Shown here: positions 4,677-18,771 of the stretch, in pieces
How positions within the stretch are numbered: position 1 is the first letter of the stretch
Layout: the number at the start of each line of letters is the position of its first letter
IMG/VR virus record: IMGVR_UViG_3300033070_001288
Span: 4,841 to 68,840 of that record
DNA length: 64,000 nt
DNA from: a virus
Taxonomy: Duplodnaviria; Caudoviricetes
Direction: 5' to 3' (one strand)
Notes under the pieces: generated by a model
Databases searched by the model: none
What the model was told of the DNA's origin: nothing
Seen by the model: only the letters and a program-made list of their open reading frames with translations
Made by a program: the position numbers and the translations under genes

Positions 4677-5162
4677 ATGCCCATCAAGAAAGGCGACCTC
4701 GTCCCCAATTTCCCGAACCCCGCGAGGGAGCTGGCGACTTCGTTCCTCGAGGTAGTAGACGTCGCCGCGGCAGACGGCGACTCTATCGTGAAGATGAGGC
4801 AGCGGGTGGAGAAGGTTGCTCCGTCGGTGGAAGGCGGCAACTTCTTGGTACCCGCGTCGATGCTCAGAGACGTCAAGGTCTACCGCCTGATCGACCCGTT
4901 CGCCGACGACGCCGTGCCGGTCGACAGCCTCCGAGAAGACTACGACAGCCTGGGCACGAACCCCCGTGCGTGGGCGCGGGCGATGGCTCAGCAGACGGTA
5001 GAGGGCAGGCTCGACGAAACTACGCTGCTCGGCTGGTGCTCTCGCCTCATCGAGGCTGGAGCAGCGCGCGAGCGTGCTCTGATCCCTCGAATCTCCGCTC
5101 CGCCGAAGAAGCCGCGTCCTCCCTCTGCTCGCCCCCTGCGCACGAGGTCGGTGAAGAAGTGA
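4677..5162 (+). CDS. hypothetical protein
   Basis: Starts 1 nt after the portal stop; phage-like codon usage. Confidence 0.7.
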   Translation: MPIKKGDLVPNFPNPARELATSFLEVVDVAAADGDSIVKMRQRVEKVAPSVEGGNFLVPASMLRDVKVYRLIDPFADDAVPVDSLREDYDSLGTNPRAWARAMAQQTVEGRLDETTLLGWCSRLIEAGAARERALIPRISAPPKKPRPPSARPLRTRSVKK

Positions 5163-11214: not shown

Positions 11215-14200
11215 ATGCGCATCGACCGAGTATACACCACCTCCGTATCCGACCCCTACGACCTCATCGAGTGGACGCGAACCGACAGCGAGATTCGCAA
11301 CCCCGACGGCGGCGTCGTCTTCTCGCTCAGAGACATCGAAGTTCCCAAGGGCTGGAGCAAGGTCGCGGCCGACGTGCTCGCGCAGAAGTACTTCCGCAAG
11401 GCCGGTGTCCCTGCGATTACGCGCCGCGTTCCCGAAGACGGCGTCCCCAACTGGCTGCAGAGGTCGGTTGGAGTTGAGGTCGCGGCGGTAGGCTCCGAGA
11501 CGAGCGCCAAGCAAGTCTTCGACCGCCTCGCTGGCGCCTGGACCTACTGGGGCTGGAAGATGGGCGTGTTCGACCCGTCTGCAGACCAGCTGGCGGGGGT
11601 AGTCGTCGACCCCCGGGCCATCGCGTTCTCCAATGCGCGCGCCTACTTCGACGAGATGCGCTACATGCTCGCCGCTCAGATCGCGGCCCCCAACTCTCCG
11701 CAGTGGTTCAACACCGGCCTGCACTGGGCCTACGGCATCGACGGCCCGTCGCAGGGTCACTACTACTACGACACCGTCGTCGGCGAAGTCGTCGAGTCTA
11801 AGTCGTCCTACGAGCGCCCGCAGCCCCACGCCTGCTTCATCCAGTCGGTGGCCGACGACCTCGTCAACGACGGCGGCATCATGGACCTGTGGACCCGCGA
11901 GGCGCGGCTGTTCAAGTACGGCTCGGGCTGCCTGTCGGGTGACGCAGACGTCGTTACCGCTACGGGTATCGTAAATCTGCGTTCTCTGTGGCGTCGGGCG
12001 AGGAAAGAGGGCCTGACACCGCAAGAATTTGACGGTGCCGGCAGGTATATTGATGTCGCCCACTGGGGCGTTAAGGTTGCTTCGTTGTGCACTCGTACGG
12101 GTTCGTACAGGTTCGCTCCCTTGGATAAGGTATGGTCGTATCGAGTACCGAAGGAAGACAAGGTCTGCGTGACCTTCGATACGGGTGCAAAAGTAACCAC
12201 CAGTGCTTGGCATCCGTTTATGAAGTGGAACGGTGAAGCCATCGTAGAGTGTCGCGCAGACACTCTAGTTCGTGGTGATGCCGTAGCCGGACCGAATACG
12301 TCTTTGCTAGATACGCTACCGAAGAAAAACCACTCCATAGATGTAACGTCTAGATACTTTGGTAGTCGGGAGACGCAGACGATTGCCGTAGATGCAGACG
12401 TTGCCTGGCTTATAGGGTACTTCTTCGGTAACGGCAATCTGGGTAAGACGGGAAAATCTCTTCGGTACGGTACCACCAGATACCGCGTACGTTTTTCCGA
12501 TCACCATCGAGAGCCACTAGACAAGATCGTCGGAATTATCGACTCGCTATTCGGCGAGAAAGGCACCGTCAAAAAATCCAAGCGCGCCGACATGTACGGC
12601 GTAAGTTTTACCGGACGATGGACGACACGCCTGTTTCGAACTCTGTCTCGGGCAGGAAGCAAGACGTATACGATGAAGGTTCCAAACTTCGTCTACTTTC
12701 TGCACGATGACGTATACGCCGCGTTCATCGCGGGCCTAGCCGACTCTGACGGTTCAGTATCAGGGGGTCGAATCCACTACCATACAGCGTCACCGAAGTT
12801 CCTTTCCGCGCTGGCCGGTATCTGCAGTGTTCGCGGACACGGCGGCAGTTCTACTCGGCGCAGCGTATGCCTAGTCAGACGTTCCTATAACGGTCCCCTG
12901 CGGGAAGCTATTGTTGCAAACATGGCAACTCCCCGCCACGTAGAAGCGATGAGAACCCCTAGTCGCAGGCAGTGGACTCTCCCACTAACAGGTGCGATGA
13001 GAGAAGCCATTATAGACCAACAAGAAGACTATCTGCATAACAGTGTAGACGGAGAACTAATTCATACGGGACGCCTCCGCTATGATAGCGTCGTAAACTC
13101 TTGCAAAGTTTCTGCACTCGCTACGCTGCTGCGTCCGAAAGACTCTGCTCTACTTCAGAACGTGGCGTCGGGTGCTGCATTCGTCACCGACGTAGCTTCT
13201 CTAGATTCTGACGTAGACTTCTACGATCTTACCGTAGGGGGAGATAACAATTATCTCGCCGGAGAAAACGGGTTCGTCACTGTCCATAATACCGGCACCA
13301 ACTTCTCGGCCGTTCGCGGCGAGAACGAGAAGCTGTCTGGCGGCGGCAAGTCGTCGGGCCTAATGTCGTTCCTGAAGATCGGCGACGCGTCGGCGGGCGC
13401 CATCAAGTCGGGCGGCACGACTCGCCGCGCTGCCAAGATGGTCGTCCTCGACGTAGACCACCCCGACGTGGTCGAGTTCGTTCAGTGGAAGTCGCGCGAA
13501 GAAGACAAGGTCGCGGCGCTCGTGACGGGTTCGAAGGTCGTCAAGAAGCACGTTCGGTCGATCATGCGCGCCTGCATCAACTGCGAGGGCGAAGGCGACT
13601 CGTGCTTCGACCCGAAGAAGAACCCGGCTCTGCACAAAGAGATTCGCCTGGCGCGACGCGCTTCGGTGCCCGACTCTTATATCCACCGAACCGTCCAGCT
13701 GGCTCGTCAGGGCATCAGCGAAATCGACTTCGACGAGTTCTCCCTCGACTGGGGCTCCGAGGCCTACACGACCGTCTCGGGCCAGAACTCGAACAACTCG
13801 GTCCGCGTGAGCGACGCCTTCATGGAGGCCGTGAACCTCGACACCGAGTGGAAGCTCAAGGCGCGTCTCACCGGCGAGACGATGCGCGTCGTGTCGTCTC
13901 GCGACCTGTGGGACAAGATCGGCTACGCGGCGTGGTCATCCGCAGACCCCGGCGTCCAGTACGACACGACGATCAACGACTGGCACACGTGCTCCGTCGA
14001 CGGTCGCATCAACGCGTCGAATCCGTGCTGCTTCGTAGCAGGCACTTTCGTAGACACGAGCGAAGGCCTCATCGACATCGCAGAGCTTACGCGAATGAAG
14101 CGTAGGGGAGAGACTTTGCCCCTTGCTTTTAGCTACGATTTCGACAAAGGCGGTCCCGTTCTTCGCCAGATAAATAACGCTTGGAAAGCCGGCGTCACAC

Positions 14201-15882
14201 GTAACCTCGTGGAAGTAAGAACAGAAAAAGGTCAACGTATTCGCTGCACCCCCGAGCACGTATGGTACCTGCGAGACGGAACAGAGGTACAAGCCAAAGA
14301 TTTGCAACCAGGTATGAGCCTAAGAAAGATCAAGAGGGGTGCCAATCCTCACCGTTCTGGAAGAATCTCTATCCTGTCGTTTCCCGATTCCCGAAGCGAG
14401 CGCGGTCGTTGCAGCCAAGCTCGATGGATGTGGAAACAAGTATTCGGCGATATACCGGAAGGCTTCGAGGTTCACCATAGAAACGAAGACCCTACCGACG
14501 ACAGAATCAGCAACTTCAAGCTAGTCGAGGGCCGGCGCCATCGCAGGTTCCATGCTCGAGGTCTACGCAATCCTCGAGCAATAGACGTATCCAGCGAGGT
14601 ACTAGTCGAAGTTTTCGACACGATAGCTTCGCAGGATCGCAAAACACACAAGCGGCGCGATGGAGTTTCCCCTGCGATGTGGAACTCTTACATTCGTCGA
14701 AACAACCTTCGCGGAAAGGTGCCTATGGCAGCGTCGCCGACGCTGGGTGGACGTATTCGAGGAATGAAATGGGATGCGTTCGTGTCTCAGATGGAAGAAG
14801 CGCGCTACGACGTAAATGATCGCGTCAAGCGTGTTAAGAATATAGTGCTCGACTCTGCTGTTCCTGTATACGACATAGAAGTCGAAGGAACACATAACTT
14901 CGGCATTCGAGACGATCAGGACGGCAGCAAATCTTCTCTGATCGTATCGAACAGCGAGTACATGTTCCTCGACGACACGGCCTGCAACCTGGCGTCGCTG
15001 AACCTCAAGAAATTCGGCGGCGTCGCCGACTTCGACGTGGATCGCTTCAGGCACGCCGTTCGCCTGTGGACCATCACCCTCGAAATCTCGGTGGAGATGG
15101 CTCAGTTCCCGTCGCGCGAGATCGCTCTGCGCTCGTACAAGTACCGCACGCTCGGCCTCGGCTACGCGAACGTCGGCGGCATGCTCATGTCGAGCGGCGT
15201 GGGATACGACTCGCGCACCGGCCGCGCCACCATCGGGGCCATCACCGCGATCATGACGGGTGAGGCATACGCGACCTCGGCGCGCATGGCGGAGCAGCTC
15301 GGGCCGTTCGTTCGCTACGAGGCCAACAAAGACTCGATGGAGCGAGTGATCCGCAACCACCGAGCGGCGGCTCAGGGCACCTTCTACTCGAAGCTGTCTA
15401 TCGAGCCTCCCAAGCTCGACCACTATGCCTGCTCTCCTGTTCTCGCGAAGGCGGCGCGCGACGTGTGGGACGATGCCATCAATCTCGGCACCGCTCACGG
15501 ATACCGCAACGCACAGGTGTCGTGCATCGCCCCTACGGGATGTACGCTTTCTACTACGCGTATTCGTACCGAAGATGGTATCAAGTCTTACCGTGAAATT
15601 TTAGAAGAGAACGATATAGACTGGAAGGAAATCGAAAAAGGTAACGACCAACGTTGGATTCCACTGAAGCCTTTCTGGCTTCCGTCACAAGATGGGCATC
15701 GAGACTATGCCGATAAAATATGGTACAACGGTATCCAAGAAACCTACGTCGTCACTTTTGAAGACGGAACAGAATTTGAGTGTACTGGCAACCACAAATT
15801 GTTGGTACGCTTGAGCAACAGCGAAACTGCCTGGATCGAGGCTCAATACCTCAATGGGGATGAAGAGGTATTATCTTCATAA
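11215..15882 (+). CDS. nrdJ: class II (AdoCbl-dependent) ribonucleotide reductase, N-terminal fragment with two cis inteins and a terminal split-intein N-half
   Basis: VLAQKYFRKAGVP, APNSPQWFNTGL, PQPHACFIQSV, RRAAKMV, INASNPC/SEYMFLDDTACNLAS, RTLGLGYAN, SCIAPTG; AGGAG RBS. Confidence 0.95.
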   Translation: MRIDRVYTTSVSDPYDLIEWTRTDSEIRNPDGGVVFSLRDIEVPKGWSKVAADVLAQKYFRKAGVPAITRRVPEDGVPNWLQRSVGVEVAAVGSETSAKQVFDRLAGAWTYWGWKMGVFDPSADQLAGVVVDPRAIAFSNARAYFDEMRYMLAAQIAAPNSPQWFNTGLHWAYGIDGPSQGHYYYDTVVGEVVESKSSYERPQPHACFIQSVADDLVNDGGIMDLWTREARLFKYGSGCLSGDADVVTATGIVNLRSLWRRARKEGLTPQEFDGAGRYIDVAHWGVKVASLCTRTGSYRFAPLDKVWSYRVPKEDKVCVTFDTGAKVTTSAWHPFMKWNGEAIVECRADTLVRGDAVAGPNTSLLDTLPKKNHSIDVTSRYFGSRETQTIAVDADVAWLIGYFFGNGNLGKTGKSLRYGTTRYRVRFSDHHREPLDKIVGIIDSLFGEKGTVKKSKRADMYGVSFTGRWTTRLFRTLSRAGSKTYTMKVPNFVYFLHDDVYAAFIAGLADSDGSVSGGRIHYHTASPKFLSALAGICSVRGHGGSSTRRSVCLVRRSYNGPLREAIVANMATPRHVEAMRTPSRRQWTLPLTGAMREAIIDQQEDYLHNSVDGELIHTGRLRYDSVVNSCKVSALATLLRPKDSALLQNVASGAAFVTDVASLDSDVDFYDLTVGGDNNYLAGENGFVTVHNTGTNFSAVRGENEKLSGGGKSSGLMSFLKIGDASAGAIKSGGTTRRAAKMVVLDVDHPDVVEFVQWKSREEDKVAALVTGSKVVKKHVRSIMRACINCEGEGDSCFDPKKNPALHKEIRLARRASVPDSYIHRTVQLARQGISEIDFDEFSLDWGSEAYTTVSGQNSNNSVRVSDAFMEAVNLDTEWKLKARLTGETMRVVSSRDLWDKIGYAAWSSADPGVQYDTTINDWHTCSVDGRINASNPCCFVAGTFVDTSEGLIDIAELTRMKRRGETLPLAFSYDFDKGGPVLRQINNAWKAGVTRNLVEVRTEKGQRIRCTPEHVWYLRDGTEVQAKDLQPGMSLRKIKRGANPHRSGRISILSFPDSRSERGRCSQARWMWKQVFGDIPEGFEVHHRNEDPTDDRISNFKLVEGRRHRRFHARGLRNPRAIDVSSEVLVEVFDTIASQDRKTHKRRDGVSPAMWNSYIRRNNLRGKVPMAASPTLGGRIRGMKWDAFVSQMEEARYDVNDRVKRVKNIVLDSAVPVYDIEVEGTHNFGIRDDQDGSKSSLIVSNSEYMFLDDTACNLASLNLKKFGGVADFDVDRFRHAVRLWTITLEISVEMAQFPSREIALRSYKYRTLGLGYANVGGMLMSSGVGYDSRTGRATIGAITAIMTGEAYATSARMAEQLGPFVRYEANKDSMERVIRNHRAAAQGTFYSKLSIEPPKLDHYACSPVLAKAARDVWDDAINLGTAHGYRNAQVSCIAPTGCTLSTTRIRTEDGIKSYREILEENDIDWKEIEKGNDQRWIPLKPFWLPSQDGHRDYADKIWYNGIQETYVVTFEDGTEFECTGNHKLLVRLSNSETAWIEAQYLNGDEEVLSS
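11929..13290 (+). mobile_element. intein 1 (454 aa, LAGLIDADG endonuclease) at KYGSG|TGTNFS
   Basis: Begins CLSGDADV and ends FYDLTV..VTVHN with Thr+1. LAGLIDADG motifs LIGYFFGNG and FIAGLADSDG; AT-richer than exteins. Confidence 0.93.
14029..14952 (+). mobile_element. intein 2 (308 aa, HNH endonuclease) at NPC|SEY
   Basis: Begins CFVAGTFV; block B CTPEH; HNH motif EVHHRNEDPTDDRISNFKLV..HRRFH; ends VYDIEV..LIVSN with Ser+1. Confidence 0.92.
15541..15879 (+). mobile_element. split intein N-half (113 aa) after IAPTG
   Basis: Starts CTLSTTRIRT and has block B FECTGNHKLLV. Ends at stop 15880-82 without blocks F/G. Confidence 0.9.
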
Positions 15883-15888
15883 GTCTTG

Positions 15889-15940
15889 GGAATAGCTCCT
15901 AGCTACTAACCAATTTTATACGTTAGCTAGGAGCTATTCC
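15889..15940 (+). promoter_or_regulatory. RBS-sequestering hairpin with candidate late promoter in its loop
   Basis: Perfect 17-bp arms GGAATAGCTCCTAGCTA (15889-15905) and TAGCTAGGAGCTATTCC (15924-15940). The right arm holds AGGAG and abuts the ATG at 15941; the loop contains CCAATTTT. Confidence 0.8.
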
Positions 15941-17197
15941 ATGTCCATACCTGTGGTAAACTTTGTAAGAGGGAGAACTCACCTACATCGCTATCTAGAG
16001 AAGCAGTCACTTCCTAAGATAGTACGCGATGTTCGCAAATTAAAGAATGAAGACTGGGAAAAGATATTTAGCAGCAGCTATGATCCAGATGTGCCAGTTA
16101 AGGTATACCGGACGGCTATCTACCTTTGGGCAAAGCGACGATTATCTCCAAAGACGATACTTAGATATTACAGAGGACTGATAAGTCGTAGTCATTTTTC
16201 AACTTCTCAAATAGAAATGTGGCTGGATAGTCCTAATGCGAGTCCTAGGGTACCTGATTTTTATAAGAGAAAATATGGTATTCATTGGAAAGCATACTAT
16301 GATATTGCTAGGAAAAAGAGCAATCCCTACAATTTAGAATCGGTAATGAAACGCTACGGACTCAGCAGACGCGAAGCTGAAATCGAAGTAGGACGCAGAA
16401 AGAAAAATACTTCTGGATCGTTTGCATCATTTCTTCGTCGTGCCGGGGGTGACGTTTCGGAGGCTCGAAGAAGGTTTCGCTCCTTCTGCGAGAAGTCTTC
16501 TCATACTGAAGAAAAATTCCGAAAGAGATACGGTAAAAACTATAAGGCAAAGTGGGAAGAGTACAAGAAGAGCAAGAACAGCTATGACTTGGACAAGTAC
16601 GTAGCTAAGTACGGAGAATCTCTGGGCCGCGAAAAATTGCTCGATAGAATAGATCGTAGCGTCGTGGACTATGCCAAGTTCGTGGAAATGTACGGTGAGC
16701 ATAACGCTGAGCGTGAGTATATTAAGTACTGCTATAGAAAAACCAAAAGCTGGAAACGTAAGTCGGGTAGGTGGGGTGCAACCAAAGAGTCGTTGGAGTT
16801 CTTTAAGCCGCTGCTACTCAAACTCGATAGAAGAAACGTTGAATACCGAATAGGAGTTGAGGGTAACCGAGAGTTTATGCTACTAGATAAAGAATCGGGT
16901 AAGGTTAGGTACTACGATTTTTGTATACCCTCTATCAGAGTAGTAGTCGAGTTCGACGGTTTTACGCATCCTAGTCCTTCGTTGTCTGCAAAAAAACTGG
17001 CTAAATGGCGCTGCCACTTTACTGGAGTTTCTGCAGAAACTCGTCTTGCAGATGACGAGGCTAAGAGGCGCGTAGCGGTTTCTAGAGGTTACCTGTTCTT
17101 CCGTTTTCACGCAGATGAGATCAAAAAAGATAGGCGTCGGTATCAGGCTATGCTGTGGAGTGTAATCAATCCCCTGCTTAAGGAGAAGAGAAAATGA
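15941..17197 (+). CDS. free-standing Vsr-like (PD-(D/E)XK-related) homing endonuclease between the split-intein halves
   Basis: Repeated (K/R)YG units, then [44 protein letters not shown]-rich; ATGA overlap with the intein C-half start. Confidence 0.8.
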
Positions 17198-17301
17198 AAA
17201 TAACGTCCGTACGCAAGTCGGGAAGAAGTATGCCCACTTGGGACATTGAAGTTCGGGACAAGCATTGTTATTGGTTGGAGAACGGCGTATTATCGCATAA
17301 T
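17194..17301 (+). mobile_element. split intein C-half (36 aa)
   Basis: [36 protein letters not shown] is basic, with block F Asp, terminal His-Asn and Thr+1. Confidence 0.92.
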
Positions 17302-18771
17302 ACGATCGGCCTCGTCATGGACTGCGACACGACGGGCATCGAGCCCGACTTCGCTCTCGTCAAGCACAAGAGCCTCGTCGGCGGCGGCTTCTTCAAGATC
17401 ATCAACCAGTCGGTGCCCGACGCCCTTCGCGCTCTGGGCTACGGCCAAGACACGATCGACGGGATCACGCGCTACGTGGTCGGGTCGGGCGAGCTTCCCG
17501 CCGATTTCTGGGCCAAGCTCACGTTCGAGGAGAGGCACGCGCTCGAGGCTTCGATCCCGACGGCGTTCTCGATACGCAGCCTGGGCATCAACTGGGAAGA
17601 GCGCGGGTTCACCCCCAAGCAGATCGACGACGCCGACTCGTACTGCTGCGGCCGCATGACCATCGAGGGCGCACCCGGCCTGCGCGAGGAGCACTACTCC
17701 GTGTTCGACTGCGCCAGCCAGTGCGGCAAGTGGGGCACGCGCGTGCTTTCGGTTAACGCTCACCTCATGATGATGTCGGCGGCTCAGCCGTTCGTCTCGG
17801 GAGCTATCTCGAAGACGATCAACATGTCGAACGACTGCACGGTCGCCGACTGCCTCGACGCCTACCGCCTCGCGTGGGGCCTCGGCCTCAAGTCGGTGGC
17901 GCTCTACCGCGACGGGTCGAAGCTGTCCCAGCCGCTCATGTCGCGCCTCGCTGTCGACGCCGACGAGGCCGAAGACATCGTCGAGCTGAACCCCGCCGCG
18001 CGCACCGAGCGCGTGGTGGAGCGCATCGTCGAGCGCATCGTGGCGCGCGACCGCGAGAAGCTGCCCTCCCGCCGCAAGGGCTACACGCAGAAGGCCGTCG
18101 TCGGCGGCCACAAGGTGTACCTGCGCACGGGCGAGTACGAGGACGGGCGCCTCGGCGAGATATTCGTCGACATGCACAAAGAGGGCGCGACGTTCCGCAG
18201 TCTGATGAACTCGTTCGCAATCGCAGTGTCCATCGGCCTGCAGTTCGGCGTGCCGCTAGAAGAGTTCGTAGACGCGTTCACGTTCACGCGCTTCGAACCC
18301 TCGGGGCTGGTTCAGGACAACGACGCTATCAAGAACGCTACGTCGATCCTCGACTACGTGTTCCGCGAACTGGCGATCTCGTACCTCGACCGCACCGACC
18401 TCGCTCACGTGACTCCCTCGGGCAACGGGACCGAGATGGGCGGCGGAGAGTCGGAGGGTCGCCAGCAGGCTCTCGTCTCTCGCGGCCTCCTCCGATCCGC
18501 CGGACCGCTAGCTCTGGCTGCGGAGCTGGCCAAGTCTCTAGAAGGAGCCAGTGTTCCCGTGCGCATGACTGCTGCAGCGACGGGGCTCGGTTCCGTCGGC
18601 GTAATAGCGACGGTCGGAGCCGTCGACGTCGCAGCTCCCAGCCGCGCCGAGGTGGCTCTCATGAAGGGCTACGTCGGAGAGTCGTGCGAGACGTGCGGCA
18701 ACTTCACCCTCGTCCGCAACGGCACGTGTCTCAAGTGCGACTCGTGCGGAAGCACCACCGGCTGCAGCTGA
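17194..18771 (+). CDS. nrdJ: class II RNR C-terminal fragment preceded by split-intein C-half; includes TSCPD-like domain and terminal Zn ribbon
   Basis: HN|[91 protein letters not shown]. Confidence 0.95.

Follow-up and report, generated by a model that had tools for sequence, protein, structure and literature searches.

Fractured genes carrying split inteins were described from phage and metagenomic sources by Dassa et al. (2009; PMC2677866), with NrdJ-1/2, NrdA-1 to NrdA-7, gp41-1 and IMPDH-1 as the examples. In each, a gene of DNA metabolism is divided between two open reading frames (ORFs), with N- and C-terminal intein halves (IntN and IntC) surrounding a free-standing gene for a Vsr-like endonuclease, a family later named EDxHD (PMC3239194). 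The reported insertion sites are NP/C in NrdA and NPC/S in NrdJ-1/2 (a slash marks the splice junction throughout). Here we describe a related locus in a 64,000-nt stretch of viral DNA, positions 4,841 to 68,840 of IMG/VR record IMGVR_UViG_3300033070_001288 (hereafter, the window). In this locus nrdJ, which encodes a class II ribonucleotide reductase (RNR), is fractured by what its sequence identifies as a naturally split intein (Table 1). The source is a 68.8-kb contig with a CheckV completeness of 28%, and is therefore a fragment of a larger phage genome.

The window element resembles the systems of Dassa et al. in that the host gene lies in two ORFs, an endonuclease ORF with a frame of its own lies between the intein halves, the 5' region of the endonuclease gene contains a hairpin, and Cys1 is accompanied by the other class 1 residues. 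It differs in its site, the phosphate loop at IAPTG/T rather than NPC/S or NP/C, and in its +1 residue, Thr rather than Ser. The window gene also contains two contiguous inteins, one of them an HNH intein at the NrdJ-1 site. Identity with the NrdJ-1 or NrdJ-2 allele was considered and rejected, since the split intein sits at IAPTG/T and NPC/SE, the reported NrdJ-1/2 insertion point, is taken by the HNH intein. The latter ends in a non-canonical VSN motif. An initial annotation of this DNA had likewise placed the split intein at a site different from that of NrdJ-1. It had also proposed an unreported allele. No description of this allele was found in the open-access literature, searched by topic and by peptide motif, but inteins homologous to it are present at this loop in many viral contigs and in cultured Campylobacter phages. 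We place the element within the known class of fractured genes, as a new member inserted at a new site.

Table 1. Features of the fractured nrdJ locus (window coordinates)
Feature	Position	Strand	Description
nrdJ N-terminal ORF	11215-15882	+	1555 aa; class II RNR; Pfam Ribonuc_red_2_N, Ribonuc_red_lgC
nrdJ N-terminal extein segments and two contiguous inteins	11215-15540	+	Pfam also Intein_splicing, LAGLIDADG_3, HNH_3
Intein 1, contiguous, LAGLIDADG	11929-13290 (aa 239-692)	+	at GSG/TG
Intein 2, contiguous, HNH	14029-14952 (aa 939-1246)	+	at NPC/SE
IntN	15541-15882	+	113 aa (15541-15879); stop TAA 15880-15882
Hairpin, perfect, 17 bp	15889-15940	+	arms 15889-15905 and 15924-15940
Endonuclease ORF	15941-17197	+	418 aa; free-standing; frame 2 (IntN and IntC, frame 1)
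IntC ribosome-binding site, AAGGAG	17180-17185	+	read from sequence; inside the end of the endonuclease ORF
IntC	17194-17301	+	36 aa; opens the C-terminal nrdJ ORF (17194-18771)
nrdJ C-terminal extein	17302-18771	+	from Thr+1; end of RNR barrel and TSCPD domain (Pfam)

The coordinates given initially for the nrdJ stop, the two intein halves and the resumption of the gene all hold. IntN begins with Cys1 directly after IAPTG, contains the TGNH motif, has block B as T82-x-x-H85, and ends in LSS-TAA. IntC contains block F (WDIEV..HCY) and block G (..VLSHN), and its last residues, ENGVLSHN, are followed by TIGLVMDC. All residues of a class 1 intein are present: Cys1, TxxH, the block F Asp, the terminal HN and the +1 Thr. 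A spacer of 58 nt separates the IntN stop from the endonuclease ATG. At the other end, the IntC ATG (17194-17196) overlaps the endonuclease TGA (17195-17197) as ATGA, and the AAGGAG element sits 8 nt upstream of this ATG.

Joining the exteins yields IAPTGTIGL, part of a loop that we take, from established RNR knowledge, to bind the substrate phosphates. When aligned to the solved NrdJ structure 7b9p, ORF1 extends up to G675 and ORF3 starts from T676, with zero gap and zero duplication; therefore, the junction is seamless. The uninterrupted homologue of Bradyrhizobium phage BDU-MI-1, the closest cultured-phage NrdJ (52.7% identity), has VIAPTGTIGLLMDC at this position. Compared by megablast with the phage collection, the locus itself had no match. 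Subtraction of intein 1, intein 2, IntN and IntC leaves a mature NrdJ of 1169 aa, the length originally proposed; to make this protein, one splicing event in trans and two in cis would be required. The Thr at +1 belongs to the native extein sequence of the loop, and the Cys1/Thr+1 combination is found in ~12% of inteins (PMC11766414). The initial annotation, which called Thr+1 uncommon, was right about the identity of the element and too generous about its rarity.

The ORF between the intein halves is AT-rich, as described initially. Its GC content is 43%, versus 64-66% in the exteins, and the whole IntN-endonuclease-IntC cassette is at 43-44%. The presence of such a cassette within a gene of 65% GC points to its horizontal acquisition as one unit.

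Further evidence for a split intein comes from a contiguous relative. In cultured Fletchervirus phages of Campylobacter (e.g. F355, MT863718, and NCTC12673), the large subunit of RNR carries a mini-intein in the same RNR loop with the same +1 Thr, and IntN is 42.5% identical (E = 7e-21) to the N-terminal part of this intein. That intein reads AIAPTA/CVTKE...FNTWDIEVPDVHEYLLENGCISHN/TSG, with ENGCISHN/TSG at its C-terminal end, and shares with IntC the motif PTWDIEV-x-D-x-H-x-Y-x-LENG-x-x-SHN/T. IntN and IntC are colinear with it, and they part at a short loop, ...EIVSITNNIKIKSI... in Campylobacter versus ...EEVLSS-stop and MKITSV... in the window. Such a loop is the usual location of endonuclease domains in inteins. 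Unlike the window element, the Campylobacter intein is part of a single polypeptide, has no endonuclease gene inside it, and resides in a class I-like RNR of a low-GC phage. The two window halves also differ in charge, with a net -11 for IntN and +4 for the first 14 residues of IntC. Natural split inteins show electrostatic complementarity of this acidic/basic kind.

Conservation of the splicing residues bears on whether the halves splice or merely hold the enzyme together. IntN residues C1, T82, N84 and H85 are invariant across 5 homologues, and every homologue retains Cys1, the block B T-x-x-H, the block F Asp, the terminal His-Asn and a hydroxyl residue at +1. Against non-covalent assembly of the NrdJ fragments through the intein halves, as reported for the NrdA of Aeromonas phage Aeh1, which is split by a homing endonuclease gene (HEG), all the catalytic residues that splicing needs (Cys1, TxxH, HN and Thr/Ser+1) are kept over loci that are only 30-60% identical. 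Moreover, a 149-aa HINT (Hedgehog/intein) domain left in the phosphate-binding loop would probably block catalysis. There is a documented case of a functional RNR put together from fragments after a mobile element split its gene (PMC3045599); the insertion in the window also lies in an active-site loop, and splicing here is predicted from sequence. On balance, we regard non-covalent assembly as improbable and favor trans-splicing.

The intervening ORF encodes a two-part protein. In its AlphaFold2 model (mean predicted local distance difference test score, 92.5), the first 278 residues (1-278) are made of helices with recurring (K/R)YG modules and probably bind DNA, while residues ~279-414 form the Vsr/EDxHD nuclease domain. 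Comparison of this C-terminal domain (279-414) with solved structures using VIA-align gave Z = 10.4 for Vsr (1cw0; 115 residues aligned, root-mean-square deviation 3.2), Z = 10.4 for the DUF559 protein 3hrl, and Z = 9.7 for the catalytic domain of I-Bth0305I (3r3p; 97/98 residues, 2.6 Å). Based on this modeled fold, the protein belongs to the Vsr-like family of Dassa et al., now EDxHD, in line with the initial annotation. An alignment of 45 family members shows E311, D326, E337, G340 and H343 to be invariant, and D372 to be conserved in at least 90%. Compared by spacing only, D326-H343-D372 (17, 29) approximates D51-H69-D97 of Vsr (18, 28; PMC2677866). A Foldseek search with the whole 418-aa model returned weak matches (best relevant E = 0.26), and the family profile gave nothing significant against PDB sequences.

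Of described enzymes, I-Bth0305I (Taylor et al. 2011, PMC3239194; PDB 3r3p), the prototype of the EDxHD homing endonucleases, is similarly built, with an N-terminal DNA-binding region and a C-terminal nuclease of Vsr fold in which acidic and His residues are conserved. Its gene lies in a group I intron of recA rather than between split-intein halves. The sequence of I-Bth0305I gives no detectable match to the window endonuclease, and the structural match covers the nuclease domain. A full-library HMMER search with the window protein recovered 551 representative clusters at E ≤ 1e-3. Each of the three closest relatives (46%, 39% and 36% identity) lies between two RNR fragments, and the two with readable DNA have homologous IntN and IntC ends, at ..APTG/C and ..SHN/T.

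The same break recurs in other viral loci (numbered L001 onward below). A stop, a separate frame and an ATGA overlap are found in independent assemblies L008-L012, L017 and L035. Two of these, L009 and L010, represent the same phage as the window (99.8-99.9% nt identity), assembled independently from two other samples, whereas L008 is diverged (72-75% nt identity in the exteins) with identical architecture. The ATGA overlap is kept in L008, L011 and L012. Since a metagenomic viral contig is the source of the window, an error of assembly or sequencing might in principle have broken up a contiguous intein whose endonuclease domain is in frame; alternatively, the insert might be an intron removed from the RNA. 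However, the stop, the 58-nt spacer with its hairpin and ribosome-binding site, the frame change and the ATGA overlap reappear in independent assemblies of other samples and in diverged loci, and an Rfam scan of positions 15300-17500 showed no intron or ribozyme family. The independent loci effectively refute an artefact, and we give this explanation almost no weight.

Comparison of the window with L008 allowed an assessment of selection. Amino-acid identity is 81% for IntN, 92% for IntC and 71-73% for the exteins; the endonucleases are 68% identical, with 418/418 residues aligned and zero gaps. Within the element, synonymous sites have reached saturation and the nonsynonymous rate (dN) is 0.10-0.28, from which it follows that IntN, IntC and the endonuclease are all under purifying selection. 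No frameshift and no loss of a catalytic residue was seen among the relatives.

L009 is informative in another way. It carries a 354-nt deletion (L009:4925-4955; window positions 15879-16232 absent) with TC microhomology, which takes out the hairpin together with the ribosome-binding site, and also the endonuclease gene's first ~97 codons. The deletion rebuilds the final Ser codon and stop of IntN (...LSS-stop), such that the IntN frame is exactly kept. This looks like an endonuclease caught in decay with the split intein retained, the pattern expected if functional IntN is required and the endonuclease is dispensable. The deletion also shows that the C-terminal half of nrdJ does not depend on translation of the endonuclease. 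These observations are hard to reconcile with the idea that insertion of a selfish endonuclease turned nrdJ into a pseudogene, now in decay, whose intein-like ends are remnants. Degeneration is suspected in some RNR genes of phages, namely Campylobacter phages, in which inteins and HEGs have accumulated (PMC3653736). In the window, though, all three ORFs are intact, diverged relatives bear the mark of purifying selection, the exteins align fully to a solved NrdJ, and the L009 deletion precisely preserves IntN. We therefore consider a pseudogene very unlikely.

Upstream of the endonuclease, the hairpin has a predicted folding energy of -29.1 kcal/mol (z = -7.0; 0 of 200 shuffled sequences as stable). 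The ribosome-binding site of the endonuclease, AGGAG, lies within the 3' arm of the hairpin, and this arm stops at the ATG. Hairpins covering the ribosome-binding site are also found in L008, L011 and L012, with different sequences; the one in L008 has a compensatory change of A-T to C-G and the same loop motif, ACCAATTT. By hiding the ribosome-binding site, the hairpin would lower endonuclease output. The loop motif itself occurs four times on the + strand of the window (15909, 26682, 28145 and 31250), versus 0.31 expected, with two of the four copies at hairpins ahead of endonuclease genes. It may be a promoter-like motif of the phage.

We think it very probable that the locus is a fractured gene housing a composite selfish element, IntN-hairpin-EDxHD HEG-IntC, inserted between Gly and Thr of the conserved loop IAPTG/TIGL in a class II RNR gene. 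We infer the following steps of regulation, splicing, DNA cleavage and homing. The nrdJ gene would be translated as two polypeptides, the C-terminal half from its own ribosome-binding site, while the hairpin, by sequestering the ribosome-binding site, would keep endonuclease levels low. IntN, which is acidic, and the N-terminus of IntC, which is basic, would come together in a HINT fold, and class 1 trans-splicing would then join the exteins through a Cys1 thioester, attack by Thr+1 and cyclisation of the terminal Asn. Splicing of the LAGLIDADG and HNH inteins in cis would complete the intact 1169-aa NrdJ. The endonuclease probably cuts the intein-less nrdJ of co-infecting phages, with repair copying the whole cassette.

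Several results weigh against this interpretation. The Pfam Intein_splicing profile scored only 22.1 bits on IntN (E = 1.4e-4) and 15.1 bits on IntC (profile positions 122-155; E = 0.021), both below the cutoff of 35.8, and a phmmer search of PDB sequences with IntN found no solved intein better than E = 0.26. For the endonuclease, the sole Pfam match was DUF559, below the curated cutoff. Finally, no intein-less allele of this phage was found, and homing is for this reason only an inferred step.

A pattern-based locus search with an IntN alignment recovered 18 viral loci. Word-indexed protein searches with IntN and with IntC were far less productive, each returning only the window's own proteins and one relative, and a scan of metagenome contigs gave at least two loci. 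Among 185,579 prokaryote species genomes, no IntN relative was found, although this search was limited by its pattern and is weak evidence for restriction to viruses. Split inteins with Thr at +1 are found in class II RNRs at ..APTG/C...HN/ (L017, L035/36) and in class I RNRs at ..PMPTAS/C...SHN/ (TAQ following; L018-20). Those with Ser at +1 are in class I RNRs at ..MPSES/C...SHN/ (SS following; L024-30), ..MPVA/ (L022/23) and ..MPCES/ (L031). A contiguous form, also with Ser at +1 (SS), lies at ..IAPNM/C...SHN/ (L032-34). IntN identities range from 27% to 81%, and the sequences group largely, but not strictly, by extein class. This virus-borne family is widespread at the RNR loop, in both class I and class II enzymes, and is common in metagenomes.

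What lies between the intein halves varies. An EDxHD gene is present in L017, L019 and L022, and an HNH-type gene in L027-31. In the intervening ORFs of the latter (e.g. L028:3907-4983), an HNH-like end, HLDH...N, replaces the EDxHD domain. The HNH-type ORFs of L027, L029 and L030 match the helical module of the window endonuclease at residues 138-232, which suggests that nuclease domains may have been swapped on a common DNA-binding scaffold. No match to this module was seen in L028, and L031 gave only a marginal match elsewhere. In L020 (2451-2701) and L024-26 (L024:3164-3265), only ~100-250 nt and no endonuclease ORF separate the halves.

From this we tentatively propose, with confidence somewhat short of even, an undescribed and apparently virus-restricted lineage of split inteins at the RNR phosphate loop. 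This lineage would have moved between RNR classes, would exist in contiguous, split-with-HEG and split-without-HEG forms, and would have exchanged its nuclease domain (EDxHD or HNH) while keeping the helical module. If so, it offers a natural series for studying intein splitting, as well as a panel of new split inteins, both Cys1/Thr+1 and Cys1/Ser+1 in type, that may be orthogonal to gp41-1, NrdJ-1, IMPDH-1 and DnaE. Contiguous, split-with-endonuclease, endonuclease-truncated and endonuclease-free alleles at one site bear directly on the model in which mini-inteins are fractured by endonuclease genes that stand free. For protein ligation, the naturally split inteins known from phage metagenomes (gp41-1, NrdJ-1, IMPDH-1) rank with the fastest tools, and any new pair of distant sequence is a candidate for an orthogonal part. 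The Cys1/Thr+1 pair of the window is a plausible candidate of this sort, as first proposed. The window gene would also be an extreme case, with one essential enzyme predicted to depend on three independent splicing events associated with three endonuclease families.

Three further loci have unusual features. L012 (2809-3130) contains a related fractured RNR in which the break follows ..ATNP, just ahead of the thiyl-radical Cys. The interruption is ~320 nt of non-coding, structured-looking sequence, with the reading frame resuming inside the stretch, and is possibly a group I intron. In L011 (1672-2688), the C-terminal extein appears to enter another intein seven residues past IntC (TIGLVMD/CFSGKEKF...). 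In L003 (4427-4777), a class I NrdA has a homologous IntN, the contig ends before any IntC, and the ORF past the IntN stop resembles a DNA methyltransferase of the Dam type, not an endonuclease.

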